From Geobacter sp. UBA4057 (GTDB taxonomy: Bacteria; Desulfobacterota; Desulfuromonadia; Geobacterales; Pseudopelobacteraceae): DNA of 24,811 nt. The notes beneath the pieces were generated by a model. That model saw nothing but the letters and a program-made list of their open reading frames with translations. It did no database searches and was not told where the DNA came from. The position numbers and the translations under genes were made by a program. This document shows, one piece after another, positions 1,038 through 24,811 of this stretch (positions are counted from its first letter, which is position 1; each line of letters begins with the position of its first letter). The stretch lies in the NCBI GenBank assembly GCA_002382705.1, contig DFZL01000031.1:1-24811 (forward strand). Direction: 5' to 3'.

Positions 1038-1042
1038 CTTTC

Positions 1043-1215
1043 CCTTTTCTGCTCATTGCGACTGTATTCCAAACTGTTTAAGCAACCTTTGGTAATCGCG
1101 GGAACAGTATTGACTGCCACGATCCGGATGATGAATCAGTCCCTCTGACGGATGTTTTGCTTTTACCGCATTAAACAGCGCTTTACCAACCAACTCCCTG
1201 GTCATCCGCTCACAG
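1043..1215 (-). pseudogene. IS3-family transposase OrfB (rve/DDE integrase core) C-terminal fragment; an IS remnant.
   Basis: Minus-strand translation of about 1215->1043 gives YCERMTRELVGKALFNAVKAKHPSEGLIHHPDRGSQYCSRDYQRLLKQFGIQSQ*. The (L)IHHSDRGSQY(T/C)S...Y..LL...GI motif is characteristic of IS3 OrfB integrase cores. It is bounded upstream by in-frame stops (TAA TAT), is only about 57 codons long and abuts the MTase start. Confidence 0.65.
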
Positions 1216-1244
1216 TAATATTAGGGCAGCTTGTTTCCGTGCGG

Positions 1245-4962: not shown

Positions 4963-5945
4963 GCTCCGCTCCTCATCTTGCGTCTGAAAATCTTCCAGGG
5001 GGAAGGCGGGGGGAGCAGCAGGGCGTTCGCCTTTCGTGCAGGGATTTTCACAAGCTTCCTTATCTCTCTTCTTTTTTCCAGAATCGCGCGAAAATCGGCT
5101 ATCACGCTGATTCTTGCTTTGATGGCCGCCCAGCCTCTCCCTTTGACGGCGGCAAGCAGTATCGATGCCGCGTCATGAAGAAGAATTTCAGGAAGGTGCC
5201 GGGCGATCAGAGGAAATGGCCAGTTTTTGACTATTGTCCGCCATTTGTTCCGGTGCGTATGATAGACAGTGAAATCGCTCATCCGGCCTGAAGTAGCCGA
5301 ATGGATATGATATGCGACCCCCTTCGGGGCTGCCAGAGCTCTCCATCCGGCCAATACGGCTCTCCATGCCAGGTCCATGTCTTCGTAATATGCGAAGAAC
5401 TCCGGGTCGAAAAAGCCTGTTTCAGAGATCATGCTCCGTCTGTAGAGTGCGGCTCCGGCGCAGGCCCCGAAGATATATCTCTCCCTGTCATATTGGCCTC
5501 TGTCGGCCTCCCCGGCTCCGATGCTGACCGCGGTGCCGTTGCTGGCCGGGTATATGCCGACGGAATCGATCATGTCCCTTTTATGATAATCGAGCATTTT
5601 CGCCGCCACGATTCCTGTTTTGCAGCTCTTCTCCGCTACCTTCAGAAGCTCTTCGAGGAAATTTTCAGAAACTTTTGTATCGTTATTCAGGGTTACTATG
5701 TATTCTCCGCAGGATACCGCGAAACCTCTGTTGTTCCCTCCGGCGAAGCCCAGATTTTCAGAGAGCGCCACTATTCTGACCCAGGGGTAATTTTCGCGCA
5801 GATAGTCAACCGATCCGTCAGAGGAGCCGTTGTCCACGAGTATGGCCTCGAACTGCCGGAAGCTCTGGACGCGAAGCGAGTCGAGACACTCCTTCAGGAG
5901 CTTCTTTCCGTTGTAGTTAAGAATTATGACCGATATACGAATCAT
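4959..5945 (-). CDS. GT2-family glycosyltransferase (GT-A fold).
   Basis: The ORF track extends to 6092, but the likely start is the ATG at 5945 (MIRISVIILNYNGKKLL...) with AGGAA 8 nt upstream, which avoids a 100-bp overlap with the upstream gene. Motifs present: VDNGSSDGS, NLGFAGGNNRG and the DXD-like NNDT. Confidence 0.8.
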   Translation of the reverse strand: MIRISVIILNYNGKKLLKECLDSLRVQSFRQFEAILVDNGSSDGSVDYLRENYPWVRIVALSENLGFAGGNNRGFAVSCGEYIVTLNNDTKVSENFLEELLKVAEKSCKTGIVAAKMLDYHKRDMIDSVGIYPASNGTAVSIGAGEADRGQYDRERYIFGACAGAALYRRSMISETGFFDPEFFAYYEDMDLAWRAVLAGWRALAAPKGVAYHIHSATSGRMSDFTVYHTHRNKWRTIVKNWPFPLIARHLPEILLHDAASILLAAVKGRGWAAIKARISVIADFRAILEKRREIRKLVKIPARKANALLLPPPSPWKIFRRKMRSGA

Positions 5946-5989
5946 GTTGCATTCCTGATCAAATGCCCAGACAGAAGGGATTCGCCTGT

Positions 5990-6940
5990 TCAGCGCGCCT
6001 TTGTTTCCGGCTGGCCAGAGCCGGAGAAGTGAAGCAGCGAGACTGCGCCGAGCATAAAATATCTGCCGCGCTTCGGAAACCTGGTGCGGCACGCATTGAA
6101 AATATGGCGTCTCCCTTTTGCGATCTCCCCCTCAAGAATCAGCGCCTTTCCGTAGTCAGCTTCATGAAGCGCCAGCGGAGCGGCAAAGCCGATTCTGCGC
6201 TCTTCAAGCCGGTTTCTGTTTTCAGAGACAAAATCTTTTATGACTTTCCATTTTGCTTCGTGCATCCCCAATGCGTCGCGGCTCGTGTTTGAGTCATGCT
6301 GCCGGCAGAGTGCGTGGCATTTGTCGATAAAACCGAACTTTACCCCTGAAATGGCGAGTCTCAGGAAAAAATCCCAGTCTTCGTTTCGGGCAAGGGAGGT
6401 ATTGAAGCCGTTAACCCTTACTGCGGCCGTTTTCCTGAAAAGGGGGGAATTGACGGTTATGAAGTTGCCGTACAGGAGATTCTCAAGAATGTCACCTTCC
6501 GAAGTCTGCCGTTTTACGGCGAAAGTTCCGTTTTCTTTCTCCCCGCGGAAATAAGCGGCTTTTGAATATACCGCGTCATATCCTCTCCGCTCTTCAAGAA
6601 ATGCGACCTGATCCCCGATTTTGTCCGGAGTGAGGAGGTCGTCGGAATCAAGAAACGAGATGTAAGCGCCAGATGAGATATCGATCCCCCTGTTTCTCGC
6701 CGCGGATCGTTCGAGGTTATCCTGACGGAGGCAGATAACGCCGTCGAATGATCCTGCTATCTCTCTTGTGGCGTCGGTTGAACCGTCGTCCACGACGATG
6801 CATTCGACATTCGGGTAGCTCTGACCCAGGACGCTTTCAATCGCCTCTCTTATGAATTTTTCAGAGTTCATTGCCGGAATGACGACCGAAACCCTGGGAT
6901 GCGATGAATCAGAACTCTTTTTCGAGGCTCTTTCTGTCAT
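5990..6940 (-). CDS. GT2-family glycosyltransferase.
   Basis: 316 aa with an ATG start. Motifs present: VSVVIPAMNSEKFIREAIESVLGQSY, ECIVVDDGSTD and the DXD motif LDSDD. It is a paralog of the gene at 7854..8771, with the same N-terminal motif order. Confidence 0.85.
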   Translation of the reverse strand: MTERASKKSSDSSHPRVSVVIPAMNSEKFIREAIESVLGQSYPNVECIVVDDGSTDATREIAGSFDGVICLRQDNLERSAARNRGIDISSGAYISFLDSDDLLTPDKIGDQVAFLEERRGYDAVYSKAAYFRGEKENGTFAVKRQTSEGDILENLLYGNFITVNSPLFRKTAAVRVNGFNTSLARNEDWDFFLRLAISGVKFGFIDKCHALCRQHDSNTSRDALGMHEAKWKVIKDFVSENRNRLEERRIGFAAPLALHEADYGKALILEGEIAKGRRHIFNACRTRFPKRGRYFMLGAVSLLHFSGSGQPETKAR

Positions 6941-7857
6941 ACTGTTTCACATCTCCCGAACTTCCCTCTGAAATAGTCGAAAATGGCCAGCAGCATAGCT
7001 TTGATGCTGTGTAGTCGCCCCTCTCTTTTCGTGAAAATAATCCGCGCTATTTCCCGAGGGATGAGATTCAGAAGGTAATTCGCCAGAAAGAGGATATATA
7101 ACGGCGCCGGGGCGTTTTTCTTCATGAAAAGGATATTGTTTCTGGTCATGTAATACTTCACAAGCGGCGAACCTTCTCCACCGGTCGAGGCCGCCCCCTT
7201 GTGCCAGACCTTCGAGCCAGGGATGTAGAAAATTATGCAGCCGGTTTTGCGAGCTCTGACACACCAGTCGGTCTCTTCAAAATAGAGGAAAAATCTTTCG
7301 TCCATAAGACCTGTATTCCTTACGGTTTCACTCCTTATGAAGAAGCTGCATCCTGAGACGGTTTCAACCTCCCTTGTCTCATCGAATCTTCCGTCGTCTC
7401 TCTCGCCGTAACCTGTAAGCGAAGGTTGCCCCGTGATCCGGTTTATCCTCCCCCCGGCCGAATTGATAATCCCGGGAGTGTCGCTGAAGAGAATCTTCCC
7501 GCCGAAAATTCCCCCCTGCTTCATCTCGGCTGCTGCCGAAAGAAGATGTGAGAGCGCATCCGGAGCGACAGTCGTGTCGTTATTCAGAAGCCATATGTAT
7601 TCGGCGCCGTTTTCAAGCGCATACCGTATCCCTACGTTGTTTCCGCCGGCAAAACCGAGATTTTCGCTGTTTCTTATGATCGTTATTCCGGGGAAACGGA
7701 GTTGCAGTATCTCACAAGAGCCATCTGTCGAGGAGTTGTCAACTATGACGATCCGGAAGGCGTCACCCTGGAGGCAGAGGCATGACTCGACACATTCAGC
7801 TGTGTCGCTCCAGCCGTTCCAGTTGAGGATTATGATAAAGCAGCTCTCCCTTTTCAT
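6937..7857 (-). CDS. GT2-family glycosyltransferase (rhamnosyltransferase/WbbL-like subgroup).
   Basis: 306 aa. Motifs present: FIIILNWNGWSDT, IVIVDNSSTDGS, NLGFAGGNNVGIRYA and NNDT. ATGA overlaps at both ends. Confidence 0.85.
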   Translation of the reverse strand: MKRESCFIIILNWNGWSDTAECVESCLCLQGDAFRIVIVDNSSTDGSCEILQLRFPGITIIRNSENLGFAGGNNVGIRYALENGAEYIWLLNNDTTVAPDALSHLLSAAAEMKQGGIFGGKILFSDTPGIINSAGGRINRITGQPSLTGYGERDDGRFDETREVETVSGCSFFIRSETVRNTGLMDERFFLYFEETDWCVRARKTGCIIFYIPGSKVWHKGAASTGGEGSPLVKYYMTRNNILFMKKNAPAPLYILFLANYLLNLIPREIARIIFTKREGRLHSIKAMLLAIFDYFRGKFGRCETV

Positions 7858-8771
7858 CTTTTTTTAATGATGCGGTCTGCCGCAAGGTAAAGAGCGTAGA
7901 GCAGGGATTTCGGCCTGAGCGCGCTTAGAGAGAGAGCTGCCGCGTCAATCAGGGCTGGCAGCGTCTCCCCGCTCTTTATCCTTTCATACGCCATCAGAAG
8001 TCTTGCCGTATCAAGATGCCTCATATTCGTTTTTTTCAAGGCGCTGTTTTCGAGAAGATTGCCAAGCTCTGCCCGCAAATCATGATGCGCTTTAATCATT
8101 GAGCTGAAATCGCCGCTTATGTTCCGGTCGTGAATCCTTATAAGGGTTGCGGAGCCCGCAGGGTCGAAGCGTCTGAATCTGGCGCCTTTCATCGCGCATC
8201 TAAGCCAGAATTCCCAATCTTCAAGGTGTCGCATATTCTCCTTGAACATGCCGTATCTGGAGAATACCGAAGAGCGGATGAGAGGGGATGAGATGACGAG
8301 GCCGTTTCTCTCTATCATGCCGCGGAGGAAGGCTTCGTCCGATTCTTCCGATGCCTGTCCGGCAAAGAGGTCGCCGCATCCTTCCTTTTCATCCCTGAAA
8401 TATGAAGCCTGACCGTAAACTATGTCCGTATCATGGTTCACATCAAGAAAAGCCTTATGTTCCGCGATCTTGTCAATTTCCAGAAGATCGTCTGCGTCCA
8501 GAAGCTGGATGTACTCTCCGGAAGAGCTTCTTATCCCTCTGTTTCTTGCTGCGGATACCCCGAGGTTTTCCTGGCGGATGTAGAGGAGTCTCGGCTCTTT
8601 TTGCGCCATCCGGTTGACTGTTTCAGCGCTGTTGTCGGTAGAGCCGTCGTCAACCACGATGCATTCTATATGGCTGTAACTCTGCCCGAGCGCCGATTCT
8701 ATCGCCTCCGGAAGATATCTGGCGTAATTGCGGGTCGGAATTATGACCGATACAAGCGGCTCCGCTCTCAT
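7854..8771 (-). CDS. GT2-family glycosyltransferase (paralog of 5990..6940).
   Basis: 305 aa. Motifs present: VSVIIPTRNYARYLPEAIESALGQSY, ECIVVDDGSTDNS, SAARNRGI and LDADD. ATGA overlaps at both ends. Confidence 0.85.
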   Translation of the reverse strand: MRAEPLVSVIIPTRNYARYLPEAIESALGQSYSHIECIVVDDGSTDNSAETVNRMAQKEPRLLYIRQENLGVSAARNRGIRSSSGEYIQLLDADDLLEIDKIAEHKAFLDVNHDTDIVYGQASYFRDEKEGCGDLFAGQASEESDEAFLRGMIERNGLVISSPLIRSSVFSRYGMFKENMRHLEDWEFWLRCAMKGARFRRFDPAGSATLIRIHDRNISGDFSSMIKAHHDLRAELGNLLENSALKKTNMRHLDTARLLMAYERIKSGETLPALIDAAALSLSALRPKSLLYALYLAADRIIKKR

Positions 8772-9562
8772 GGCGCAATCCCCCTCTTGCCGCTGTTTTC
8801 AACCAGTCTGGCGAAGTAGAGCGAATTTTCCCTCCTCGTTTTCAGGTATCTCCAGAATGCAGGCAGCAATCTGAGCGGGTTTTTCCCCAGGTATCTCCTC
8901 CTGACCCTCCACTCCTCGCTGGAAGCCAGATCAGCCTCGAAGCTTGACCTGCTCTTTTCATGAACGCGGAAGCAGGAGAGCGGCCGGTCTATCAGTGCGG
9001 GGGTGCCGCAGATTTTCCCGACCCTCAGCCAGAGGTCGTAATCCATGGCATATCTGAGCGACAGGTCAAAAAGGCCGCAACTGTTGAAAGCGCTCCTGGT
9101 GACGAAGGTTGAAGGGTGAAGAAGCGTGTTCCCCATGAGGAGGGTTCTGTAATCGTATCCTCTCACCCTGATCTCGTCCATCTTCTCTCCGGTCTCGCCT
9201 GCGCAGAACATCCCCCCTGTCGCCCAGAGCCTCCCTGACTCCGCCAGCGCCTTGGCCACTGACGAAATGACACCGGTGTCAGGGTAGAAATCATCGGCAT
9301 GAAGATGGGCTATGATCTCTCCGGTCGAGAGCCTGATTCCCTTGTTCATCGCGTCCGAAATCCCGTTGTCAGGCTCTGAAATCCACCTTATCGACCGGTT
9401 TTCGTCCGCAAATCTCCTGATTGTCTCAAGGGTGCCGTCGCTCGAGCCTCCGTCTATCAGGATGTATTCGATATCGGGATACTCCTGGGAGAGGACGCTT
9501 CTGATCGTTTCCTCTATAAAGCGGGCTGAGTTCAGGGAGACCGTTATGACTGACACCTTCAT
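8768..9562 (-). CDS. GT2-family glycosyltransferase.
   Basis: 264 aa. Motifs present: KVSVITVSLNSARFIEETIRSVLSQEY, YILIDGGSSDGT and HADDF. ATGA overlaps at both ends. Confidence 0.85.
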   Translation of the reverse strand: MKVSVITVSLNSARFIEETIRSVLSQEYPDIEYILIDGGSSDGTLETIRRFADENRSIRWISEPDNGISDAMNKGIRLSTGEIIAHLHADDFYPDTGVISSVAKALAESGRLWATGGMFCAGETGEKMDEIRVRGYDYRTLLMGNTLLHPSTFVTRSAFNSCGLFDLSLRYAMDYDLWLRVGKICGTPALIDRPLSCFRVHEKSRSSFEADLASSEEWRVRRRYLGKNPLRLLPAFWRYLKTRRENSLYFARLVENSGKRGIAP

Positions 9563-14172: not shown

Positions 14173-14335
14173 CTTCTTGCCCCTTTTCCCTAAAAAAGAG
14201 TGAACCGATAAAATGTCAGATACCTTACCATAGAGTTGCCGTGTTGCGAGAGACAAAATTGGACAAAAAGATGCCAGCAGTATTCAAACAGCAAGAATTG
14301 TGTTATCAATCACCCCTATCAGACTGAAAAAATTC
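14173..14335. promoter_or_regulatory. Divergent intergenic region likely to hold promoters for the minus-strand glycan locus and the plus-strand VKOR operon.
   Basis: A 270-bp AT-richer gap lies between divergent gene starts. The best minus-strand candidate is TTGATA-N17-TGAATACT (complement of about 14279-14309). It was not scored. Confidence 0.3.
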
Positions 14336-14466
14336 TGAGGTTCTTACAAAAGTCGTAAAGGCTGTCATTCCCGAGGCAGCAATCGGGAATTCATTTTTCA
14401 ACTGTATTAAAAGACTGGATCCATAATGGGATCATTCGGGGATGACACCCTTTTTCAAAAAGCTCC
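14336..14466. repeat. Structured palindromic repeat, copy A, medium form: left arm, short loop, right arm.
   Basis: The element reads TGAGGTTCTTACAAAAGTCGTAAAGGCTGTCATTCCCGAGG...ATCATTCGGGGATGACACCCTTTTTCAAAAAGCTCC. The two arms are inverted complements and match copy C at 21150-21398 almost base for base. The right arm supplies the spurious ATG of ORF 14442. Confidence 0.8.
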
Positions 14467-15503
14467 TCTGTCACCGGTGGAAAATGCATAAAACAGGGTT
14501 TCACGCAATTCTCTACTGGGCGGCTCTGCTTGCAGCCCTTCTGCTTTCGGTTGCCTCACAGATGAAGATATGCTCTTCAGCCTGCAGCGCGACTGCCGAT
14601 TTTTCAATATTCGGAATGGAGTTCGGCTGGTTCGGGATACTCTTCTTCATCTCCCTTGCCTCTGTCTCTGCCCTGGCGAAGCGATTCCCACCCTTCGCCC
14701 ATCTTGCGATGTTCATGCTGTTTTCCGCCGCAGGAGCGGAGGCAAGATTCATATGGATACAGAAGTATGAAATAGGGGAGTGGTGCACCATCTGCCTTTC
14801 AATAGCGGCTACCGTGTTTATTGCCGCTTCGGCCATGATTTATGAAAAATATGCCGATATCAAACATACCGGAGGAACAATGAAATTTATCCTCAAACAG
14901 TTTCCCTTCATTTCGATTGCTTTTATAATCGGCATGACGGCGGCGATTCTTGGCGTCGGAAGAGGAGATGCCGGCGCGGCCCCTCTCAACCAGTTTCTTG
15001 GCAAGCAGGACAGCGACGTGACGGTCTATTTCGTCAGCGACTGGTTCTGCCCTGTCTGCCAGAAGATAGAATCAAGAATCGAAGAGATGTTTCCAGAGGT
15101 AGCCAGAAGAGCAAGGGTAGGTTTTGTGGATATGCCGGTTCACAGGGAGACCCTCAATTTCACTCCGTACAACCTTCAGTTCATCTTTCACGAAAAAGAG
15201 AAATATATCCAGCTCCGTAAGGAGCTCTCCCTGCTGGCGCTCAGGACCAGGAACCCATCCAGGGGAGACGTCCAGAACGCTGTGATGAAGCATGGCGTAA
15301 AGCTGAGAGAGGTCGATTACGCTGATATACTTAACGGAATGCAGGCGGATCAGGCTGTATGCAGGGATTTCAAGGTCAAATTCACCCCGTCAGTGGTAAT
15401 CACCGCTTCCGGAACAGGCAGGAGCAAGGTTCTTGTGGGCGACAAGGAGATCAGCCTGACGGCTATCATCCATGCCATAAACTCTGTAAGGAGCAGAAAA
15501 TGA
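14442..15503 (+). CDS. Vitamin K epoxide reductase (VKOR)-family membrane oxidoreductase fused to a periplasmic thioredoxin/DsbA-like domain (DsbB-replacing disulfide-bond-formation enzyme).
   Basis: Five predicted TM helices. A loop Cys pair (CSSAC) follows TM1, and the VKOR active-site CXXC (WCTICLSI) sits at the start of TM4. The C-terminal soluble domain has the thioredoxin CXXC motif (WFCPVCQ). The listed ATG at 14442 lies inside repeat copy A, so the real start is probably the ATG at 14484 (MHKTGFHAILYW...). Confidence 0.75.
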   Translation: MTPFFKKLLCHRWKMHKTGFHAILYWAALLAALLLSVASQMKICSSACSATADFSIFGMEFGWFGILFFISLASVSALAKRFPPFAHLAMFMLFSAAGAEARFIWIQKYEIGEWCTICLSIAATVFIAASAMIYEKYADIKHTGGTMKFILKQFPFISIAFIIGMTAAILGVGRGDAGAAPLNQFLGKQDSDVTVYFVSDWFCPVCQKIESRIEEMFPEVARRARVGFVDMPVHRETLNFTPYNLQFIFHEKEKYIQLRKELSLLALRTRNPSRGDVQNAVMKHGVKLREVDYADILNGMQADQAVCRDFKVKFTPSVVITASGTGRSKVLVGDKEISLTAIIHAINSVRSRK

Positions 15504-17128
15504 AAAGAATAACAGGTATTTTAAAAAACCAGGTCACCTCTGGCGTCTTTATGGCGCTTTTCCTCTCCCTCTCTGTTTCGAGCCATGCTGCCCCGCTGAA
15601 GGTCAATGTCGCTCCGTTCAATGTTGTCGGGGCTCAGAACAGAGACGAGATGAAAACCACTCTTCAGGGGCTTCTCTCTTCCAGGCTGAACCAGGAGCAG
15701 GTTGCGCCGGAGGAAAATCCGTCAATGGCGGATTTTGTTATAACCGGCAGTTATGCCCGGTTCGGGAGTATGTTCAGCATAGATCTGATGATAAAAGAGG
15801 CCAAAACAGGTCGTGTCGCCAAAATATTCGAGCAGGGGGAGGGGGATGAGAACATAATTCCGGCCATAAACCGGTTGTCCAGAAAAGCGGAGAGTGAACT
15901 TGCAAGGCTGGTTTCACCTCCGGCTGCCACTGTCGCCGGGCAGGCGGCCTCTCCATCCGCGTCTCTCCCGGTTCCGGCTACTCTGCCCCCCAATCGGCAG
16001 GGGGTTGCGGTCATTTCACCTCCAGTATCGCCTTCAGCAGGCATGAAGAGAGAAGTCCCTCCTGCGGTGCAGACTCAAGAATCTCCGCGGGTTCTGGAGA
16101 GGGGAGGGCATGGCGGTTTTGCGATAAAGAGCGAGGGGGCTGACATATCTCCTGATGGTTCTTGGACAAGCGAGCCGCTTGAGGGGAATTACAACAGCAT
16201 GGCTCTTGGGAGGAGGCTTCCGGGTGGCGAGCTTGAGATATTCATCGCTGACGAGCATCTGATCCGCTACTACCTTAAGGGGGAAGGGAAGGGGTTGAGA
16301 CTCGTATCGGAAGTCAGGATACCTGTGCCGTCGCAGGTGCTAGGAATCGATACGGCAGATATCGATGGCGACAGGATTCCGGAGATATACGTCTCCATAA
16401 TCGACAGGGAAAAACTGGCCTCCAGGGTCTATACGGTTGACGGGAAAGAACTCAAACTGGTTTCAGACAGGCTGGCATGGTTTTTCAGAGGGATAGGGAA
16501 TGATTACGCCAGCCGGGTAATTTATGGCCAGGAACTCGGCACAAAAGGGGAATTCTACGGGGGGGTGGCCAGAATCAGGATGGACGGAAAGCGTCTTGAA
16601 GCGGGGAAGAGCCTCCCATTGCCCAGATATGCACATATTTTCAATTTCAACCTCTTAAACGGCTCTTCGGGCGGGACCCTGTTCACTTCGTTCAATGAAG
16701 AGGGATATCTGACAGTGACCGATCCAAAAGGGGAGGAGATATGGAAGAGCATCGAAAAGTACGGCGGTTCCGAAACCAGCTTTAAATTCAGGGATTATGC
16801 TCTGATCGGAGATACGGGGAGCCAGTACCGGATAATTTTTCTGGAGCAGAGGACAGTCACGATGGATGACGGGATGATGATTGTCCCGCGGAATGAAGGG
16901 ATGTTTGTTATAGGGAATGCACGTTCTTACAACAGGAACACCCTTTTAGGGCTTCGCTGGCAGGGGACGGCTTTCAAGGAGATGTGGCACACTAAAACCG
17001 AGCCGGGATACCTGGCCGATTTCGCCTATGACCCGGTTGCACGCTCTGTTGTGATGCTTGAGATCACCAGGAAGAGCGGGTTATCCGGGAAGGGGAAGAG
17101 TACAGTATCGATTAACAGGATAGATTAG
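15500..17128 (+). CDS. Secreted hypothetical protein with a TolB-like architecture: signal peptide, TolB-N/CsgG-like alpha/beta domain, Pro/Ala/Ser linker, and a C-terminal beta-propeller-like domain with an FG-GAP-type motif.
   Basis: The ORF track starts at 15359 (non-ATG). The ATG at 15500 (MKRITGILKNQVTSGVFMALFLSLSVSSHAAP) overlaps the VKOR stop as ATGA. The N-terminal domain (KVNVAPFNVVGAQNRDEMKTTLQGLLSSRL...FVITGSYARFGSMFSIDLMIKEAKTGRV) follows the TolB_N/CsgG/LpoB-type pattern. The linker is PPAATVAGQAASPSASLPVPATLPP. The C-terminal domain includes DTADIDGDRIPEIYVS. The mature protein contains no cysteine. Confidence 0.55.
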   Translation: MKRITGILKNQVTSGVFMALFLSLSVSSHAAPLKVNVAPFNVVGAQNRDEMKTTLQGLLSSRLNQEQVAPEENPSMADFVITGSYARFGSMFSIDLMIKEAKTGRVAKIFEQGEGDENIIPAINRLSRKAESELARLVSPPAATVAGQAASPSASLPVPATLPPNRQGVAVISPPVSPSAGMKREVPPAVQTQESPRVLERGGHGGFAIKSEGADISPDGSWTSEPLEGNYNSMALGRRLPGGELEIFIADEHLIRYYLKGEGKGLRLVSEVRIPVPSQVLGIDTADIDGDRIPEIYVSIIDREKLASRVYTVDGKELKLVSDRLAWFFRGIGNDYASRVIYGQELGTKGEFYGGVARIRMDGKRLEAGKSLPLPRYAHIFNFNLLNGSSGGTLFTSFNEEGYLTVTDPKGEEIWKSIEKYGGSETSFKFRDYALIGDTGSQYRIIFLEQRTVTMDDGMMIVPRNEGMFVIGNARSYNRNTLLGLRWQGTAFKEMWHTKTEPGYLADFAYDPVARSVVMLEITRKSGLSGKGKSTVSINRID

Positions 17129-17254
17129 CAGGCTGTTGAATCTTCATCATAATTTCATGGAAAACTGTATTGCATACATCTGCTGCTTTTTTCTCCTGCC
17201 GCGGCGGGTGTTCAACAGTTGATTCCAGGTTTTCAGTAATGTGTTTTTCAAATG

Positions 17255-17323
17255 AAGGTTCTTGCAAAAGGTTGTCATCCCGGAATGATTCTGTCGGCTA
17301 TGACAACTTTTTTGCGACTGTCT
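17255..17323. repeat. Structured palindromic repeat, copy B, minimal form in inverted orientation.
   Basis: GGTTCTTGCAAAAGGTTGTCATCCCGGAATGATTCTGTCGGCTATGACAACTTTTTTGCGAC shares GGTTCTTGCAAAAG and the TGTCATCCC(C/G)GAATGATTC core with copies A and C. It sits in the 254-bp gap upstream of the SPFH gene. Confidence 0.7.
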
Positions 17324-17382
17324 GTAAATTATGGCCTTTAGCCGGAGGCAGGGGTAAGAAGGATATTTAGAGGAGGCAACTT

Positions 17383-18480
17383 ATGTCTTTATGGGACAAG
17401 GCAAAAGCCGAGCTGCTGGATATTGTCGAATGGAACGACGATTCCTGCGATACGATGGTGTGGCGCTTTCCCAGGTTTGACAACGAGATAAAATACGGCG
17501 CGCAACTGATAGTCCGTCAGGCACAGGCCGCAGTTTTTGTGGACAGGGGTAAAATCGCAGATATTTTCCCTTCTGGCCAGTACAGGCTCACAACCGGAAA
17601 TCTTCCCATTCTGACCACGCTCCTGGGGTGGAAATACGGCTTTCACTCCGCTTTCAAGGCGGAAGTTTATTTTGTAAACCTCCGCAATTTCACAAATCTC
17701 AAATGGGGGACAAAAAAACCTCTCATTATACGTGATCCGGAGTTAGGTCCCGTAAGGCTCCGCTCATTCGGAACATACGTGATACGTGTCGGCGATCCGG
17801 GAAAATTCATAAACGAGATAGCCGGCACCGACGCGCATTTTACTGTAGACGGGATAAGCGAGCAGTTGAGAAATCTCATAGCAAGCCGTCTTGCCGATGT
17901 CATCGGCGAAAGCGGGGTGCCTCTGCTTGACCTGGCCGCAAACTATGGCGAGTTTTCCACTCTTCTGGCAGAAAAAGTGGCTCCGGAGTTCCTTGAATAC
18001 GGAGTGGAAATCACAAAATTGCTTATTGAGAACATATCCCTGCCGAATGAGGTTGAAGAGGCTCTGGACAAGAGGAGCAGCATGGGGATAATTTCGGATA
18101 TGGATACTTTTACCCGGTTCCAGGCGGCTAATTCGATGGAAGCGGCTGCGAGAAACCAGGGCGGCGAGGCCTCCGCCGGCATCGGCATGGGGATCGGTTT
18201 TGCGATGGCGAACCAGTTTGGTAAAATCCTTTCTCCTCCCGGGGATAATAGTGGCCAGAATTCTAAACAGCCAGCATCCGGCTCCGGCTATTTCGTTGCT
18301 GAAGGGGGGAACAAGACAGGACCGTTTGAATATGAAACGGTTCTGAGTATGATCGTTGAAGGGAGAGTAACGGAAGTAACGCTTCTCTGGAAGCAGGGGA
18401 TGGAAAGATGGGAGAAAGCCGCTGCATTCGATGAGTTAGGTCGTGCGCTCCGGAATATCCCTCCTCCAATTCCGACCTGA
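17383..18480 (+). CDS. SPFH/Band-7 (stomatin-prohibitin-flotillin) domain protein of the COG4260 / B. subtilis YdjI-like family, with a C-terminal GYF-like (DUF4339) domain.
   Basis: There is a strong RBS (AGAGGAGG-N7-ATG). The N-terminus MSLWDKAKAELLDIVEWNDDSCDTMVWRFPRFDNEIKYGAQLIVRQ is the highly conserved COG4260 N-terminus. The C-terminus YFVAEGGNKTGPFEYETVLSMIVEGRVTEVTLLWKQGMERWEKAAAFDEL matches DUF4339. Confidence 0.8.
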   Translation: MSLWDKAKAELLDIVEWNDDSCDTMVWRFPRFDNEIKYGAQLIVRQAQAAVFVDRGKIADIFPSGQYRLTTGNLPILTTLLGWKYGFHSAFKAEVYFVNLRNFTNLKWGTKKPLIIRDPELGPVRLRSFGTYVIRVGDPGKFINEIAGTDAHFTVDGISEQLRNLIASRLADVIGESGVPLLDLAANYGEFSTLLAEKVAPEFLEYGVEITKLLIENISLPNEVEEALDKRSSMGIISDMDTFTRFQAANSMEAAARNQGGEASAGIGMGIGFAMANQFGKILSPPGDNSGQNSKQPASGSGYFVAEGGNKTGPFEYETVLSMIVEGRVTEVTLLWKQGMERWEKAAAFDELGRALRNIPPPIPT

Positions 18481-18495
18481 CATGGGGGAAAATCC

Positions 18496-19089
18496 GTGGC
18501 GAACTGCATGAACTGCTCTGCCCCTCTTCCGCAGGACTCAATACTCTGCGGCTATTGCGGGAGCCGTAACGATGTGGACATTAAAGATATCAATCAGGAA
18601 CGGGGTGATGATCCGCCATCTGGACGGGTCTGCCCGCGCTGCGACATTCAACTTTTACCTGTCTGTCTTGATGTTAAGGGTAGTGGCGGGCGTGCCGAGC
18701 GATGCGAAAGCTGCATGGGGCTATTCTTTGCCCCTGGAGAGCTGGAGAAGTTTCTGGATGCCGTTGTCGGGAAGGTTTACAGCATAAACAGAAAGCTTCT
18801 GGAGAATCTGAGAGCGGATAAAAGGGGTGACGATGCTGCCCCGTTTTATATCAACTGCCCTGACTGCGGAAAGATAATGAACCGGGTCAATTTCGGCAGA
18901 AGCAGCGGAGTTATGGCCGACCGCTGCAGAGAGCATGGCATCTGGCTTGACGGAGGGGAGTTGAGGCGGCTTGCCGAATGGATGAAGGCCGGCGGCGAAC
19001 TGCTTCAGAAAGAGCGTGAAGGGGAGCGTATGAAGGAGTCATTGCGCGCGCTGGAGAGGGAGAGAAAGAGGGGAGAATCCGCCCCCTGA
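18496..19089 (+). CDS. Multi-zinc-ribbon protein: an N-terminal C4 ribbon plus two zf-TFIIB-type ribbons (YdjG-like).
   Basis: GTG start (in-frame ATG at 18508). The N-terminal ribbon is CMNC...CGYCG. Ribbon 2 is CPRCDIQL...CESCMGLFFAPGELEKFL and ribbon 3 is CPDCGKIM...CREHGIWLDGGELRRL; both fit the CPxC...C..CxGxWxDxGEL zf-TFIIB pattern. A basic coiled C-terminal tail follows. Confidence 0.7.
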   Translation: MANCMNCSAPLPQDSILCGYCGSRNDVDIKDINQERGDDPPSGRVCPRCDIQLLPVCLDVKGSGGRAERCESCMGLFFAPGELEKFLDAVVGKVYSINRKLLENLRADKRGDDAAPFYINCPDCGKIMNRVNFGRSSGVMADRCREHGIWLDGGELRRLAEWMKAGGELLQKEREGERMKESLRALERERKRGESAP

Positions 19090-21117
19090 AAAACCCTCTG
19101 CTTCAGACGCTGGCGTCTCCTCTTCCGGTTGACCGCTCTGTTTGTCTCCGGGCTCCGCATCGTCGGCATTTCCGGGCGGTTTCCTGCCACCCCCATGCAC
19201 CGGGCACTCTTCCTTGGGCTCACTTCCACGGATATAATACTCATCACGCCTTGACCGGCATTCCGGAACCGAGAGATATCCCGTCTCCGGGTCTATTGAG
19301 ACTGAGAAAACATTTTCAGGCTTTACAAAATCAGCGTCAGCTCTTGACGCAAGAGCCGCCCGCATGAATTTTTCCCAGACAGGGGCGGCTGCGCTCCCTC
19401 CGGTGAACCTCTTCCCTGAAGGTTTGGGCATGTCATATCCGATCCAGACCCCAGTGACAATTTTCGGAGTGTACCCTATGAACCATGCGTCCCTGTAGTC
19501 ATCGGTTGTTCCGGTCTTTCCCGCCGATACATGCTTCTGGCTGAATTTTTCGAGCGATTTGGCGCTTCCGTATATCATTACGTCCTTCAGCATCTGGGTG
19601 GTTATGAATGAGGCTTCAGGAGAAATGGCGGGCGATTTCGGCGCGGGATATTCTGTCCAGCGCCGACTGTTTCTGTCATAAACCCTTATGATTACTCTCC
19701 CCTCCACCCTCTCTCCCCCGGTTGCAAACGCGGAATAAGCCTGAACCATCTCTCTTATGGTGACCTCTTCAGCCCCGAGCGCCAGCGACAGCCCGTTTCC
19801 GGCATTAAATTTCAATCCGTTCCTTGCGGCAAAATCGACAAAATACGGAATGCCCAGTGAGTCAAGCAGCTTGATTGCTATGATGTTGCTGGAGAGGGCA
19901 AGTGCGCGGCGAAGCGACAACTTCCCGAAGCTTTCTCCCCCGTAATTGTGCGGGGTCCAGCTTTTTCCCCCACCCATGTCGTATGTCACAGGAGTGTCGT
20001 CCATTATGGTTGAAGCGGTGAATCCTTTCTCAAGCGCCGCCGCATAAATGAAGGGTTTGACAGATGACCCAGGCTGCCGTCTGGCGTAAAATGCCCGGTT
20101 GTAGTCGTTCTGTTCTGGATTTGTCCCGCCTGCAACAGCCAGAATGTCTCCAGTGGTGGTCTCCATGCAGAGAAGAGCTCCCTCCAGATCAGGCGCGATC
20201 CGCTTCACTCCATCGCGGAGCGCCTGTTCTCCCTTCTTCTGAAGTTCCAGATCCAGCGCCGCCGTAACCTGCATTCCCCCCCGCTCTGTTATCTGCTCTC
20301 CGTACATTGCGATAAGCTTTTCCCTCACAAGCGAGATGTACTGCGGGGCATTCCCCGGCTTGACAACAGTCGGGGGATTAGCACGCAACTCCTTTCTCCG
20401 GCGCTCCGTGATCATCCCAAGCGCGGCCATTCTTTTAAGCACTACATCACGGCGGGCAATGATGTTGGCAGGCTTCCCCAGCGGGTTGTAGCGCGCAGGA
20501 TTTTTCTGCACTCCGGCGAGCATTGAACATTCGGGATCTGTCAGCTCTTCAGGGTTCTTGTCGAAATAGAGCCTCGCCGCCTGGGCTATTCCCCATGCGC
20601 CCTTTCCGTAATAGATTTCGTTGAAATACATCTCAAGAATCTGTTTCTTGCTGTACTTTTTCTCAAATTCCATCGCCATGCGAGCTTCTTCGAATTTCCG
20701 CTCAAACGTCTTTACTCCGGAAAGGTACCGGTTTTTTACAAGCTGCTGAGTTATGGTGGAGCCACCTTCGGCAAACCTCCCCTCAGTCACATCTTTTACA
20801 AGCGCTCTGGCTATCCCTCTGACATCCACTCCCGGATGTTCGTAAAAACGGGAATCTTCTACAGCAATCACCCCTTGTTGCAGAAAAAGCGGTATCCGGT
20901 TCAGCGGAGTCCAGTACCGCTTTTCAGAAAGGACTCTCCCCACGAATCTCTCTCTACGGTCGAAAACCTTTATGGATGAGTAACCTGAAGGGAGAACAGG
21001 GTAAAGCTGAGGATTTTCCAGGGCGAAGCCCGGTTCAGCCTGACAGGCGAGCAGCAGCGTCCATGATGCTGCGAGGGTGAATATCCTTGCGCTTGATGAA
21101 AGTTTCACAGGTTTCAA
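19039..21117 (-). CDS. Class A penicillin-binding protein (bifunctional GT51 peptidoglycan glycosyltransferase/transpeptidase; PBP1A/1C-like).
   Basis: GT51 motifs are present: EDSRFYEHPGVD, GGSTITQQLVKN and RKFEEARMAMEFEKKYSKKQILEMY. Transpeptidase motifs are SxxK (GSSVKPF), SSN (ALSSNIIA) and KTG (AGKTGTT). The ORF track runs to 21390 through repeat copy C, which is spurious. The likely start is TTG 21117 (GGAGG 11 nt upstream) or GTG 21108, giving a signal/anchor MKLSSSARIFTLAASWTLLLAC. The Gly/Pro/Glu-rich C-terminal tail overlaps the zinc-ribbon gene 3' end by 51 bp. Confidence 0.85.
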   Translation of the reverse strand: MKPVKLSSSARIFTLAASWTLLLACQAEPGFALENPQLYPVLPSGYSSIKVFDRRERFVGRVLSEKRYWTPLNRIPLFLQQGVIAVEDSRFYEHPGVDVRGIARALVKDVTEGRFAEGGSTITQQLVKNRYLSGVKTFERKFEEARMAMEFEKKYSKKQILEMYFNEIYYGKGAWGIAQAARLYFDKNPEELTDPECSMLAGVQKNPARYNPLGKPANIIARRDVVLKRMAALGMITERRRKELRANPPTVVKPGNAPQYISLVREKLIAMYGEQITERGGMQVTAALDLELQKKGEQALRDGVKRIAPDLEGALLCMETTTGDILAVAGGTNPEQNDYNRAFYARRQPGSSVKPFIYAAALEKGFTASTIMDDTPVTYDMGGGKSWTPHNYGGESFGKLSLRRALALSSNIIAIKLLDSLGIPYFVDFAARNGLKFNAGNGLSLALGAEEVTIREMVQAYSAFATGGERVEGRVIIRVYDRNSRRWTEYPAPKSPAISPEASFITTQMLKDVMIYGSAKSLEKFSQKHVSAGKTGTTDDYRDAWFIGYTPKIVTGVWIGYDMPKPSGKRFTGGSAAAPVWEKFMRAALASRADADFVKPENVFSVSIDPETGYLSVPECRSRRDEYYIRGSEPKEECPVHGGGRKPPGNADDAEPGDKQSGQPEEETPASEAEGFSGGGFSPLSLPLQRAQ

Positions 21118-21149
21118 GGGTTGTTTCGCCTCCGTTTTGTTCTGCCGGG

Positions 21150-21398
21150 TGAGGTTCTTGCAAAAGTCATAAAAGCTGCCATTCCCGAGGTAGTTTCCAT
21201 CCGGAGTTTCCGGATGGAAACGAGATAAGCGATCGGGAAAAAGAGTCGTCACCCTGCGCGAAGTCGCAGGGTCTACAGGAAACATCATCGAGCTCTTCAG
21301 ATGGATTCTGCGACTACGCTTCGCTCCGCGCAGAATGACAGTATTCTGGATGCCTGATAGAATCATTCGGGGATGACACCCTTTTTGCAAGAGCCTCG
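21150..21398. repeat. Structured palindromic repeat, copy C, long form: arms plus three nested perfect hairpin modules.
   Basis: Left arm: TGAGGTTCTTGCAAAAGTCATAAAAGCTGCCATTCCCGAGG. Hairpin 1: GTTTCCATCCGGA-GT-TTCCGGATGGAAAC. Hairpin 2: CCCTGCG-CGAAGT-CGCAGGG. Hairpin 3: TTCTGCG-N16-CGCAGAA. Right arm: ATCATTCGGGGATGACACCCTTTTTGCAAGAGCCTCGG, the inverted complement of the left arm. Confidence 0.85.
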
Positions 21399-21462
21399 GG
21401 TGGAAGCAATTAATATATTGGGAATCCGCGGTGAATTCAAATTTTCCTTTCTGCTGAAACTT

Positions 21463-21520
21463 TTACAGAAAGATTGTCATCCCCGAATGGCTCTGTCGGT
21501 GAGCCGGATTTTCAAGAACC
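21463..21520. repeat. Structured palindromic repeat, copy D, minimal form, 65 bp downstream of copy C.
   Basis: CTTTTACAGAAAGATTGTCATCCCCGAATGGCTCTGTCGGTGAGCCGGATTTTCAAGAACC carries the TGTCATCCCCGAATG...CTGTCGG core. It ends in the inverted arm (revcomp GGTTCTTGAAAAT) and is closely parallel to copy B. Confidence 0.65.
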
Positions 21521-21697
21521 TTTCAAGGTTCAATTTCTGTCGCATAATTGAAGGAGAAGGGGAGAATCGGAGCTGTTCTGGAGCAGCGCCTCTCTCCTCG
21601 ACAGAATTGCGTTTTCTCATGTTTGTATCTCATGACGGAGTAATAAGGTTGTCTTTTTCATCGCTTGCAGTTATTCTTCCAGGCTGGGAAAAATGCC

Positions 21698-22771
21698 ATG
21701 ACACCCCTTTCTGAAAACATAGGGTCAATCGGTGAATTCGGATTGATTGAAATGATAGGGAGAAAAAGCGAAAACCGCGCCGGGGTAGTAACCGGGATAG
21801 GAGACGACTCGGCGGTTACGGAGATCACCCCCGGCATGCAGCTTTTATCTTCAACGGATATGCTGATCGAGAATATCCATTTTCGTCTTGCATGGCATGA
21901 TCCTTACCTTCTAGGCCGAAAATCCCTTGCAGCGAGCATATCGGATATTGCCGCAATGGGGGGTATCCCCCGCTGGGCTCTCCTTTCAATGGCGCTGCCG
22001 GCAGAGGTTGATCTCGATTTTTTCGAAGCCTTCATCGGCGGTTTTCTTGATATGGCTTCGGAGCATGGAGTGTCGCTAACAGGCGGCGACACCTCTGCAT
22101 CGCCAGATGGCGTGGCTGTTTCCGTGACAATGATGGGGGAGCAGTTTCCAGAGAGGATAATCAGGCGTAGCGGCGCCAGAGTCGGTGATGAAATCTGGGT
22201 GACCGGAACTCCGGGAGATGCGGCAATGGGGCTCAGGATTCTTGAGAGCCGTATCCCGGGGGGAAATGATTCTTCCACCGGCATGATGCCAGATTCCGGA
22301 GAGCGTGAAAATTCTGCCGGCTACCTGGTCTCACGGTTGCTGAACCCCGTTCCTCGAGTTGCTGCGGCGCTATCTCTGGCAGACGCCCGCATCGCCAGCG
22401 CCATGACCGACATAAGCGACGGCCTGATTGCAGATTTCGGCCATATCGCGGAGATGTCGGCTATTGGTGGCGAGATATGCATTGACTCTCTTCCGGTTTC
22501 GGACAGTTTTCTGCTATTCGCCGGAGAGCGGAATAATAATGGCGATGACCTCCGGCTTTCCGGAGGGGAAGATTACGAGTTATGCTTCACGGCCTCTCCG
22601 GACGATCACGAAAGAGTTGTCGCATGCATGGAAAATTGTGGCGTCAAAGCCTCGGCAGTCGGTCTGGTCACAGGCTCCAGGAGTGTGAAGATAGTGAAGA
22701 GGGACGGGTCGGAATTCGTTCCGGATTTTGCTGGCTTCAATCATTTTATTAAACTTGAAAGGAACTCATAA
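21698..22771 (+). CDS. thiL: Thiamine-monophosphate kinase (AIR synthase-related PurM-like family).
   Basis: The ThiL N-terminal signature is present: GEFGLIEMIGRK...GIGDDSAV. The PurM-like N- and C-domains follow (GGDTSASPDGVAVSVTMMG, MTDISDGLIADFGHIAE, GGEDYELCF). The track start at 21665 is TTG; the ATG at 21698 (MTPLSENIGSIGEFGLI) gives the usual spacing. Confidence 0.8.
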   Translation: MTPLSENIGSIGEFGLIEMIGRKSENRAGVVTGIGDDSAVTEITPGMQLLSSTDMLIENIHFRLAWHDPYLLGRKSLAASISDIAAMGGIPRWALLSMALPAEVDLDFFEAFIGGFLDMASEHGVSLTGGDTSASPDGVAVSVTMMGEQFPERIIRRSGARVGDEIWVTGTPGDAAMGLRILESRIPGGNDSSTGMMPDSGERENSAGYLVSRLLNPVPRVAAALSLADARIASAMTDISDGLIADFGHIAEMSAIGGEICIDSLPVSDSFLLFAGERNNNGDDLRLSGGEDYELCFTASPDDHERVVACMENCGVKASAVGLVTGSRSVKIVKRDGSEFVPDFAGFNHFIKLERNS

Positions 22772-24787
22772 ATGCAGGTTGTCATTCCGTCCGACAAGGC
22801 GCGGCTGTGCGCCGACGCAATTCGTTTTTTATCCATCGACGCAGTTGAAAAGGCCAATTCCGGGCATCCCGGCCTTCCTATGGGGGGGGCTGACGCCGCG
22901 TTCGCTCTCTGGGGAAATTTTCTGAGATTCAACCCTGACGACCCGCGCTGGCCAAACAGGGATCGCTTCATACTTTCAGCTGGGCATGGCTCGATGCTCC
23001 TCTACTCCCTGCTCCACCTTTTCGGTTTTGACCTCACGCTTGAAGAACTCCGGAATTTCCGTCAGATGGGGAGCAGAACACCCGGCCATCCGGAATTTGG
23101 CCACACAGCTGGGGTGGAGGTGACAACGGGCCCGCTCGGACAGGGTTTCGCAAATGGAGTAGGCATGGCTATTGCTGCCAAAATGGCTGCGGAACGCTTC
23201 AACACATCAGTTTTCAAGCCTGTTGACCATCATGTCTACGCACTTGTCGGAGATGGCGACCTTCAGGAGGGGATAAGCTATGAGGCTGCTGCGCTGGCGG
23301 GGCATCTGAAGCTTGGAAACATCGTTTATATCTACGACGACAACGGAATAACAATCGAAGGAAAGACAGGCCTCGCATGGTCGGAAGATGTTGCCATGCG
23401 ATTTGAGGCGGCTGGCTGGCATGTCCAGAAAATAGACGGCCATAATTACGCCGGGATTGTATCCGCAATAGCCGCGGCCAGAGACGAATCCTCAAAGCCG
23501 TCGATAATAATGGCCAGGACACATATAGCATTCGGCAGCCCTGGCAAGCAGGATTCGAGCGGGGCGCACGGCTCGCCGCTGGGTGGCGACGAAATAGCGG
23601 CGACCAGACGGAATCTCGGGTGGTCTTACCCCCCCTTTGTGGTGCCTGACGAAGTGAGGGATATCTGTGCCGAGCGGGTTGAAACATTGAAGAGAGGCCA
23701 TGCAGCCTGGGTGCGTGGGATGCAGGTCTGGCACGCGGCCAATCCTGAAATGGCGAAACTGTGGGACAGGATGTGGAACAGGAATGTGCCGGCCGGCATT
23801 GAAAACGAGCTGCTGGAGCTTCTGGCCGGCAAGGATGGAGCTACCCGCTCGCTCTCCGGGGCTGCGCTCCAGAAGGTGGCGGAAATTGTCCCGGCGCTTG
23901 TCGGAGGCTCGGCAGATCTTGCCCCTTCCAACAACAGCGAAATAAAGGGTGCCGGATCGATCATGCCCGGAGCATTCTCCGGAAGGAATATCCATTTCGG
24001 GATTCGCGAACATGCAATGGGCGCCATAATGAACGGGATTGCGCTTTATGGATGCTTCATCCCTTACGGAGCTACTTTCCTCGTCTTTGCGGATTACTGC
24101 CGTCCGGCGGTAAGGCTCTCCGCTCTGATGAAACAGCAGGCGATATATCTTTTTACGCACGACTCTTTCTATGTCGGAGAGGACGGCCCGACTCACCAGC
24201 CTGTCGAGCATCTGGCTTCGCTCAGGATAATTCCGGGGCTCCAGGTGATACGTCCTGCGGACGGGACGGAGACGGCAATGGCCTGGTCAATGGCTTTGAA
24301 AACCGCCGACCGTCCCACGGCGCTCATCCTCACGCGCCAGAAGCTCCCGGCGATCAGCAGGGATGGGCATTTCTCCCCGGATGATATAGCCAGGGGGGGA
24401 TATCCGGTTTTATCCCCGGACTCCGACCCGGATATTGTCATAATGGCGAGCGGCTCGGAGGTTCACCTGGCTCTCGAATCTGCCGAAGCGCTTCTTTCGG
24501 AAGGGATAAGAGGACGTGTGATCTCGGTGCCATGCATTGAACGTTTCATGGAACAGCCACTCTCCTACCGCGAATCGCTCATTCCCCCCAATCTCCCCAA
24601 AGTGGCTATAGAAGCGGGGAGAGGGGAATCATGGCACAGGCTTGTCGGGTGCGACGGCCTTTTTATCGGAATCGACCATTTCGGAGCCTCTGCTCCGGCC
24701 GAGAAGCTGGCGGAAGAGTTCGGTTTTACCGCGTCTCAAGTAGCTGTGAAGATAGCTGATTTCATGAAGAAGATTCAGATTTTCTGA
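22772..24787 (+). CDS. tkt: Transketolase.
   Basis: 671 aa. Motifs present: [21 protein letters not shown] (TPP-binding GHPG), [24 protein letters not shown], the TPP-binding fold, and the transketolase pyrimidine-binding and C-terminal domains. The ATG immediately follows the thiL stop. Confidence 0.9.
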
Positions 24788-24811
24788 CTCGTTTCCATCC
24801 GGAAACTCCGG
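24788..24811. repeat. Copy E: stand-alone copy (cut by the window end) of hairpin module 1 from repeat C, directly after the tkt stop; possible terminator.
   Basis: CTCGTTTCCATCCGGAAACTCCGG equals the first 24 nt of the reverse complement of 21191-21224 (TAGTTTCCATCCGGAGTTTCCGGATGGAAACGAG). Confidence 0.6.

Follow-up and report, generated by a model that had tools for sequence, protein, structure and literature searches.

Several short palindromic repeats lie between the genes of a 24,811-nt stretch of Geobacter sp. UBA4057 (assembly GCA_002382705.1, contig DFZL01000031.1), which is referred to here as the window. A preliminary description of this DNA proposed that the repeats represent either an active non-autonomous mobile element family or a shared cis-regulatory or structured-RNA element, with a speculative link to REP-associated tyrosine transposases (RAYT). 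The locus therefore raises the question of what these repeats are and whether they act as DNA or as RNA. In our analysis, they are interpreted as decayed MITEs (miniature transposable elements with inverted repeats) that carry a pair of Ssn-related hairpins of the dRS3/NTS type (NTS, Neisseria Transformation Sequence) and act at the DNA level. We assign this reading, taken as a whole, a probability of roughly 0.7.

Repeat copies in the window

Five loci had been grouped into one family. Profile and covariance-model (CM) searches retained four of them, termed copies A to D, whereas the fifth (24788 to the end of the window) matches only a palindrome nested in copy C. The copies and the hairpin units of copy A are the following, where TIR denotes a terminal inverted repeat.

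14337-14465, plus strand: copy A, full-length type-I MITE of 129 bp, with the left TIR at 14337-14352 and the right TIR at 14448-14465
14363-14394, plus strand: left NTS-like hairpin unit of copy A, with head TGTCAT, stem TCCCGA/TCGGGA, an 8-nt loop and the degenerate tail ATTCAT
14415-14447, minus strand: right NTS-like hairpin unit of copy A, with its head, ATGACA, at 14442-14447
17254-17319, minus strand: copy B, internally deleted, with one TIR kept at 17254-17270
21151-21397, plus strand: copy C, type-I MITE whose two ends are intact and whose interior is enlarged by nested insertions at 21194-21342
21460-21524, minus strand: copy D, a right half with one hairpin unit and a degenerate TIR, 62 nt from copy C

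The core motifs said to be common to these loci are indeed enriched. With up to three mismatches, TGTCATCCCCGAATG was matched six times in the window against 0.87 expected, a number reached in 0 of 100 shuffles, and the real matches are located at 14433, 17273, 21364 and 21475. The second motif, GGTTCTTGCAAAAG, marks the left ends of copies A, B and C (14339, 17257 and 21153), and its inverted partners were found at 14450, 21382 and 21507. The reported size variants (A full, C enlarged, D a right half and B internally deleted) and the non-coding nature of all window copies were likewise borne out.

In an iterated nhmmer profile seeded with copy A, model positions 1-129 correspond to 14336-14464 (E=1e-30). 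Copy C was recovered in two pieces, model 1-55 at 21150-21207 and model 77-129 at 21343-21395; its interior holds approximately 150 nt of nested foreign sequence, and its head is mutated. For copy D, the minus-strand match spans model 63-127 (E=4e-11), and copy B is represented by a 42-nt piece (17301-17260, minus strand, model 84-125). Copy B retains one unit head and arm at 17273-17287 and a degenerate opposite end, ATGACAACTTTTTTGCGA, at 17300-17317, and its DNA folds into a single hairpin (z=-2.9).

In the window, only decayed relics are present: their scores are far below those of intact copies, and a number of hairpins in them are broken. Intact copies elsewhere reach about 110 bits in the CM search, while copy A scores 76.5 bits and copy D 34.4 bits, and copies B and C were missed altogether. 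In the right unit of copy A, the 5' stem arm has been worn from CCCCGA to CCATAA. A further true family copy (61 bits) is present in the same genome 2 kb past the end of the window (L093:5553-5679). The terminal TGAG of this copy, which is there delimited as 5548-5679, provides the TGA stop codon (5547-5549) of the upstream DAHP synthase gene.

Two ATG codons in the repeats, at 14442 and 21373, were among those described earlier as false starts. Both are the ATGACA heads of right-hand units and open over-long open reading frames (ORFs). The public gene call for the VKOR/thioredoxin-like gene (14442-15503) starts at ATG 14442, within the repeat, and the PBP1 ORF (19039-21390) runs into copy C; the true starts of these two genes are probably located further inside each gene. 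The window is also contig NAPDCCLC_10013115 of JGI metagenome 3300002446. In three other assemblies of the same strain, contigs break inside copy C and inside a transposase fragment near the start of the window.

Terminal repeats and target-site duplications

Copies beyond the window, which the preliminary description had anticipated, were sought with a 21-mer from the right arm, using one genome per species. At least 92 stretches with the core were retrieved, from metagenome-assembled genomes (MAGs) of Geobacter, Geobacteraceae, Desulfuromonadales and Trichlorobacter, from a MAG labelled 'Syntrophus aciditrophicus' and from an uncultured deltaproteobacterium. Among the matches listed, the core was also found in several Omnitrophota, a Pedobacter MAG, Nitrospirota, Thiotrichaceae and others. 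The CM gave 231 matches, with both strands counted, in 708 kb of sequence, and 40 copies can be aligned to copy A across all of their roughly 128 nt with 70-75% identity; a multiple alignment joins copy A from end to end with 38 copies of other genomes.

Full copies measure 116-131 bp, typically about 128 bp. According to an alignment of copies with their flanks, the element ends are GAG...CTC, and 39 aligned copies exhibit TIRs of 16-17 bp (GAGSYTCTTGCAAAAG on the left and CTTTTTGCAAGAGCCTC on the right). Target-site duplications (TSDs), also suggested earlier as something to look for on aligned copies, are present at these ends: among 22 full copies, 11 show a perfect duplication of 4 bp and 3 more one of 5 bp, where permutation expects 0.75 and yields at most 5. 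In the window, copy C is bordered by the perfect duplication GGGT (21147-21150 and 21398-21401), and copy A by ttct (14333-14336) and ctct (14466-14469), a 3/4 duplication. A variant on a viral contig (L105) has the duplication AGGA. Furthermore, a 158-bp element with type-I TIRs and a TATC duplication (L103:13710-13867) encloses a wholly different interior.

Duplications of fixed length are a sign of staggered double-strand cutting by a transposase, and none are made by Y1 enzymes (RAYT, IS200/IS605). The repeats are short (<300 bp), non-coding and multi-copy, with TIRs and a TSD of fixed length. Because of these TIRs and fixed-length TSDs, the family consists of MITEs and not of RAYT-driven REPINs (pairs of inverted REP palindromes). 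The mobile, non-autonomous and dispersed character proposed for the repeats is supported by their presence in at least 92 stretches, by the size variants and by the duplications, but the word 'active' does not suit the window copies, which reach 34-76 bits against about 110 and have broken hairpins.

The alternative that the hairpin pairs are REP doublets moved by a Y1 (HUH) transposase was considered in view of a gene remnant at the start of the window:

2-238, plus strand: truncated Y1 (IS200-like/RAYT-like) transposase fragment (PF01797, 38.8 bits), unrelated to the repeats

The remnant noted previously is therefore real. It corresponds to about residues 23-101 of full-length homologues of 316 aa and ends after GRY. 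Three independent assemblies all break inside this fragment, which suggests that it is multi-copy and, together with a core built as an inverted pair of palindromic units of about 33 nt, would suit a REPIN/RAYT system. However, no core copy was identified in 35 metagenomic loci (117 kb) containing Y1 relatives of 44-94% identity, and when the 92 repeat loci were searched with the fragment by tblastn, no match below E=0.8 was obtained. The TSDs of 4 or 8 bp also speak against Y1 transposition, the head is TGTCAT in place of GTAG, and the window Y1 copy is truncated, with its 3' end overlapped by the 3' end of an opposite-strand methyltransferase gene (see also L097:10668-11063). A full-length homologue (L107:2959-3909, 316 aa) has a long C-terminal extension and no obvious flanking REPs. 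The speculative RAYT link was consequently abandoned, and we regard a REPIN origin as highly improbable.

As MITEs, the repeats resemble other bacterial families (Correia/NEMIS, ERIC, RUP and Chunjie): they are small and non-coding, have TIRs and flanking TSDs, occur between genes in multiple copies, vary in size and have a strong potential to form hairpins. Chunjie of Geobacter uraniireducens has a length of 178-235 bp, 21-bp TIRs and 9-bp direct repeats (PMC3184786). Identity with Chunjie was rejected, given the length of about 128 bp, the 16-17-bp TIRs and the 4-bp TSDs of the present family. A blastn search of PLSDB plasmids with the consensus returned only a 45-nt match at chance level. 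A literature search for the TIR string gave nothing relevant, and no match was found in the lists of 'multicopy nucleotide sequences' of Geobacter genome papers.

Fold and covariation of the core

The conserved core comprises about 100 nt. TGTCAT pairs with ATGACA to form the closing helix P1, inside which three 6-bp hairpins follow each other without linker nucleotides: H1 (TCCCGA/TCGGGA), H2 (ATCCAG/CTGGAT) and H3 (CCCCGA/TCGGGG). Folded as single-stranded DNA, the core gives a perfect four-way junction. The same sequence can alternatively be described as two inverted units, 5'-TGTCAT-stem-loop-stem-ATCCAG-3', with their heads outward and their tails facing inward.

Covariation was analyzed in a MAFFT alignment of 60 diverse cores. 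In this sample, 94.4% of the cells are paired, compared with 23-54% in slid controls, and two-sided changes were counted in 67 cells against 18.6 in shuffles, with 0 of 500 shuffles reaching 67. H1 and H3 are 96-97% paired with compensatory changes, form hairpin palindromes of 20-50 nt and vary independently of each other; for instance, H1 changes from CCCGA/TCGGG to CCGGC/GCCGG while H3 stays CCCCGA/TCGGGG. It follows from this independent variation that local hairpins are maintained and not one long hairpin. Pairing in helix H1 of the left unit of copy A is backed by the same covariation; H3 of this copy has decayed.

Relationship to dRS3/NTS hairpins and ssn genes

The conserved hairpin arm (TGTCATYCCCGA...) is a dRS3/NTS-type Ssn-related hairpin, an identity that went beyond the view of the preliminary description. 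The NTS is CGTCATTCCCGCGMAVGCGGGAATCYRG and contains the classical dRS3 repeat; SsnA, a GIY-YIG protein of 94 aa, binds and cuts it as single-stranded DNA only and not as RNA (PMC11893778). Cleavage requires three bases 5' of the palindrome and binding a C directly 3' of it, and across phyla ssn genes are flanked by 'Ssn-related motifs' (SRM) (PMC11893778, Nat Commun 2025).

The positions that are invariant in our cores are those for which a critical role in cleavage and binding is reported. The left unit was unconstrained by the search pattern; in it, GTC is present in 60 of 60 cores and C follows the palindrome in 57 of 60. The flanks are oriented, with a tail consensus of ATCCAG that fits ATCYRG. 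The likeness to the Neisseria system thus extends over the head GTCAT, the palindrome type ATTCCCG...CGGGAAT, the C after the palindrome and the tail ATCCAG. Units from Omnitrophota (TGTCATTCCCGCGAAAGCGGGAATCCAG) are one mismatch away from the NTS, and the 92 related loci include 25 strict SRM matches and 7 NTS matches at up to two mismatches. The units described here differ from those of Neisseria in being fixed inverted pairs that form a four-way junction within TIR/TSD shells, and in the window and Geobacter-type sequences also in their stems (CCCGA/TCGGG), which close with A-T, and in their loops of 8-11 nt.

GIY-YIG genes with flanking units were recovered as well. An exact-unit scan of viral contigs (IMG/VR) retrieved 109 stretches, among them a locus (L195) with a GIY-YIG ORF (PF01541, 56.9 bits) and exact units on both sides. 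All five related GIY-YIG loci in IMG/VR contigs are flanked by units on both sides, with heads outward and tails toward the gene; a tblastn search of plasmids with a 53-aa GIY-YIG fragment returned no match. Since the head-out, tail-in layout of the core equals that of the units flanking ssn, the core looks like a gene-less miniature of an NTS-ssn-NTS cassette, as far as sequence layout can tell. Another arrangement is seen on a viral contig (L151:1797-1918 and L145:1271-1303, IMG/VR 3300010163_003562), where single units, GATCCCCGA...TCGGGGATGACA, form a tandem array whose period is about 89 nt.

REPIN-RAYT systems and bacterial interspersed mosaic elements (BIMEs) provide a comparable organization, with inverted pairs of short palindromes occurring as singlets, doublets and clusters, units flanking a small nuclease gene and gene-less doublets scattered through the genome. 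They differ in the gene class, which here is GIY-YIG (Ssn) and not HUH Y1, in the absence here of a GTAG head, in the TSD-generating shells around the window copies and in the range of the family, which spans phyla and not one genus.

A common core in several shells

Outside the type-I lineages, the core alone is conserved and the outer inverted repeats differ. The following arrangements were distinguished.

Type I shell: TIR GAGSYTCTTGCAAAAG, TSD of 4 bp, about 128 bp
Type II shell ('Syntrophus' MAG): TIR GTAACTATTCAGCA, TSD of 8 bp (perfect in 11 of 18, 4 more with one mismatch), 132 bp
Type III shell: TIR CCTGAKTMGT...TCTTCCGC, TSD of 8 bp (perfect in 3 of 6), about 155 bp
Naked core (Omnitrophota, some viral contigs): no TIR and no visible TSD

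In contrast to the bacterial MITEs mentioned above, conservation here is stronger in the interior than at the ends, and the interior is common to shells with different TIRs and TSD lengths. In terms of ISfinder families, GAG ends with a 4-bp duplication may be IS5-like and GTAA ends with 8 bp may be IS66-like, both as leads only. Type-I and type-II TIRs also surround unrelated hairpin-rich interiors. In L075:5144-5275, a type-II MITE sits in another core and duplicates CATTCGGG, part of a hairpin arm, which is direct evidence of nesting and of fairly recent activity in that MAG.

Shell and core meet within a few bases of the SsnA cut position, just 5' of the head, a location that would fit an exchange of modules via Ssn cleavage. 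It is possible, though less likely than not, that the core was captured repeatedly, as a gene-less NTS-ssn-NTS miniature, by unrelated cut-and-paste MITE shells.

The mobile entity could also be the hairpin doublet itself, moved by an Ssn-type GIY-YIG nuclease, in which case the TIR/TSD shells would be incidental, pre-existing MITE hosts. Naked doublets in Omnitrophota, in viral contigs and, without TIRs, in the 'Syntrophus' MAG would agree with this, as would the ssn-like layout of the doublet, the presence of the same TIRs around unrelated interiors and the nested insertions into hairpin loops that are directly seen in copy C. However, Ssn is not known to have transposition activity, the naked doublets lack a visible TSD or a fixed target, and within genomes it is the composite of shell and core that was amplified, with TSDs at the shell ends. 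We consider independent movement of the doublet unlikely as the explanation of the family; at a deeper level it is compatible with Ssn hairpins carried by MITEs and does not exclude them.

In Omnitrophota, naked cores were also observed in frame in housekeeping genes, namely ybeY (L013:3108-3185) and the linker of mutL (L008:5723-5840). The ybeY insert of 78 nt adds 26 aa (MSFPRKRESRTSGSPINTFGDDKLFG), and intragenic Omnitrophota copies translate to peptides such as SFPRKRES and CHSRESGNP. Rickettsia palindromic elements (RPE), reportedly described by Ogata and co-workers in 2000, are palindromic repeats that lie in frame within protein-coding genes. The Omnitrophota inserts are like RPE in this respect but unrelated to them in sequence, and none of the window copies is intragenic.

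Gene context and the RNA alternatives

The copies of the window had been described as lying upstream of the starts of plus-strand genes. This is true within the window, but it is not a property of the family. Rough ORF maps around approximately 100 copies showed 53 in tandem, 14 in convergent and 10 in divergent layouts and 7 inside an ORF. In the tandem contexts, the element is oriented with transcription in 26 cases and against it in 27. The upstream stop codon lies at a median distance of 82 nt and the downstream start codon at one of 97 nt, and the copies split 25 vs 27 between the two gene ends. As the family shows no bias of orientation or position, it is by coincidence that the copies of this window stand upstream of plus-strand genes. 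A type-I copy was also observed just upstream of thiL-tkt in a Desulfuromonadaceae MAG (L076:5125-5240, with a tkt gene 68% identical at the DNA level), which may be compared with 21151-21524 of the window. This common position may go back to an old insertion shared by both genomes or may be coincidental, and since the loci were chosen for the motif, the overlap alone is not significant.

These statistics bear on the proposal of a shared regulatory or structured RNA in 5' untranslated regions (5' UTRs), such as a riboswitch, a leader or a small RNA. The location of A, B and C/D upstream of plus-strand genes and the covariation behind a conserved fold would both be expected of such an RNA. Unbiased orientation and position would not, nor would copies between convergent genes or inside ORFs, nor TSDs. 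Searches of Rfam returned no family at the gathering score for the window, none at E<=5 for copy A and only chance matches to microRNA precursors for six intact copies, so that the comparison proposed earlier gave no family match; SsnA, moreover, is inactive on RNA (PMC11893778). A 5'-UTR or RNA element as a general property of the family was ruled out by the unbiased orientation and position and the lack of an Rfam match, and the cis-regulatory alternative retains only a marginal probability.

Exapted bidirectional terminators or insulators, in which a long GC-rich hairpin stands between an A-run and a T-run, represent another possibility. A conserved AAAA...TTTTT pair flanks the core, a simple scan flags terminator-like hairpins in copy A (14367-14390 and 14433-14418), and some copies begin 2-4 nt past a stop codon, the L093 copy even supplying the stop of the DAHP synthase gene. 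The distance of the copies from upstream stops is, however, not shorter than that from downstream starts, many lie between divergent genes where a terminator is not needed (for example A and C/D in the window), and the T-run begins 3-8 nt past the stem. Termination as a general property was ruled out by the gene-context statistics, and exaptation as terminators or insulators seems decidedly improbable to us.

The fifth locus and other genes of the window

The locus at the end of the window and the palindrome that it matches in copy C are described as follows.

24788-24811, plus strand: start of an element of a second family, not a MITE member, just 3' of the tkt stop codon
21193-21221, no strand assigned: nested palindrome GTTTCCATCCGGA-GTT-TCCGGATGGAAAC, 29 nt, in the loop of hairpin H1 of copy C

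Positions 24788-24811 are a 100% reverse complement of 21201-21224. The nested palindrome belongs to a second, unrelated family of small repeats with the ends GTTTCCATCCGGA and TCCGGATGGAAAC, and its copy in copy C is a 29-nt back-to-back pair. In a longer contig (L093:3531-3712), the element next to tkt is about 180 nt long, begins 1 nt past the tkt stop codon and has an inverted GTTTCCATCCGGA about 175 nt downstream. A copy right after tkt had been counted with the other repeats; an element does exist there, but it is of the second family.

On the minus strand, four adjacent family-2 glycosyltransferase genes (5817-9511) contain a 75-nt stretch with 60-75% DNA identity. Because this stretch is common to all four, the genes are paralogues. 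They lie in a long polysaccharide cluster on the minus strand that also includes a Wzt-type ABC transporter.

Proposed mechanism and points that weigh against it

In the proposed mechanism, a cut-and-paste transposase supplied in trans would insert the shell and duplicate 4 bp, a step suggested by the duplications, and the elements would spread by transposition into intergenic DNA. Selection or hairpin-templated correction would preserve the ability of the hairpins to fold. If a cognate Ssn is present, they may mark single-stranded DNA arising in replication, transformation or conjugation for cleavage, by homology with the Neisseria system. In the window, the main practical effects of the relics would be false start codons and assembly breaks.

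Several observations weigh against this interpretation. The transposase is inferred from the TSDs only: no autonomous insertion sequence was found for shells of type I, II or III in 2.1 Mb of loci, where TIR pairs 300-6000 or 400-6000 bp apart and enclosing a transposase were looked for, and no IS5-like transposase was detected in the repeat loci by tblastn with IS5 InsH and IS1106 transposase sequences. On the hairpin side, neither the window nor the 92 genomic repeat loci yielded a GIY-YIG/ssn gene, and the window units gave 0 matches to the published SRM pattern HGTCWYN(0-2)YYVSBRHN(0-5)WNVSBRGN(0-2)RNCYNB, with the A-T stem closure and loop lengths noted above. Compensatory changes in DNA palindromes can also come from template-switch correction without selection, and because the search pattern covered the right-hand unit, its conservation among the retrieved loci is to some extent imposed. 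Finally, all related genomes are MAGs, and some taxonomic labels may reflect mis-binning.

Significance

Both the MITE class and the class of hairpin cargo (dRS3/NTS/SRM) are already known. The fixed inverted pair as a four-way junction, and its occurrence in at least three unrelated TIR/TSD shells across phyla, were not found described in the literature searched; MITEs and TSDs go unmentioned in PMC11893778. Ever since the first Neisseria genomes it has been asked how dRS3/NTS hairpins come to number hundreds in one genome, and the 2025 Ssn paper names the enzyme that reads the hairpins and leaves their spread unexplained.

For the window and its relatives, several annotation artefacts are explained by the repeats, including false starts (ATG 14442 of the VKOR-like gene), spurious peptides (SFPRKRES..., IPAFAGMT...), in-frame insertions and contig breaks. 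The range of Ssn-related motifs is extended to anaerobic sediment bacteria and Omnitrophota. In Desulfuromonadales, Geobacter, the Syntrophus-like MAG and others, ordinary MITEs with clear TSDs carry the hairpins along as fixed inverted pairs. If the core was indeed captured repeatedly by unrelated shells, this would constitute a second, transposase-driven route for the amplification of Ssn hairpins and for their horizontal spread across phyla.

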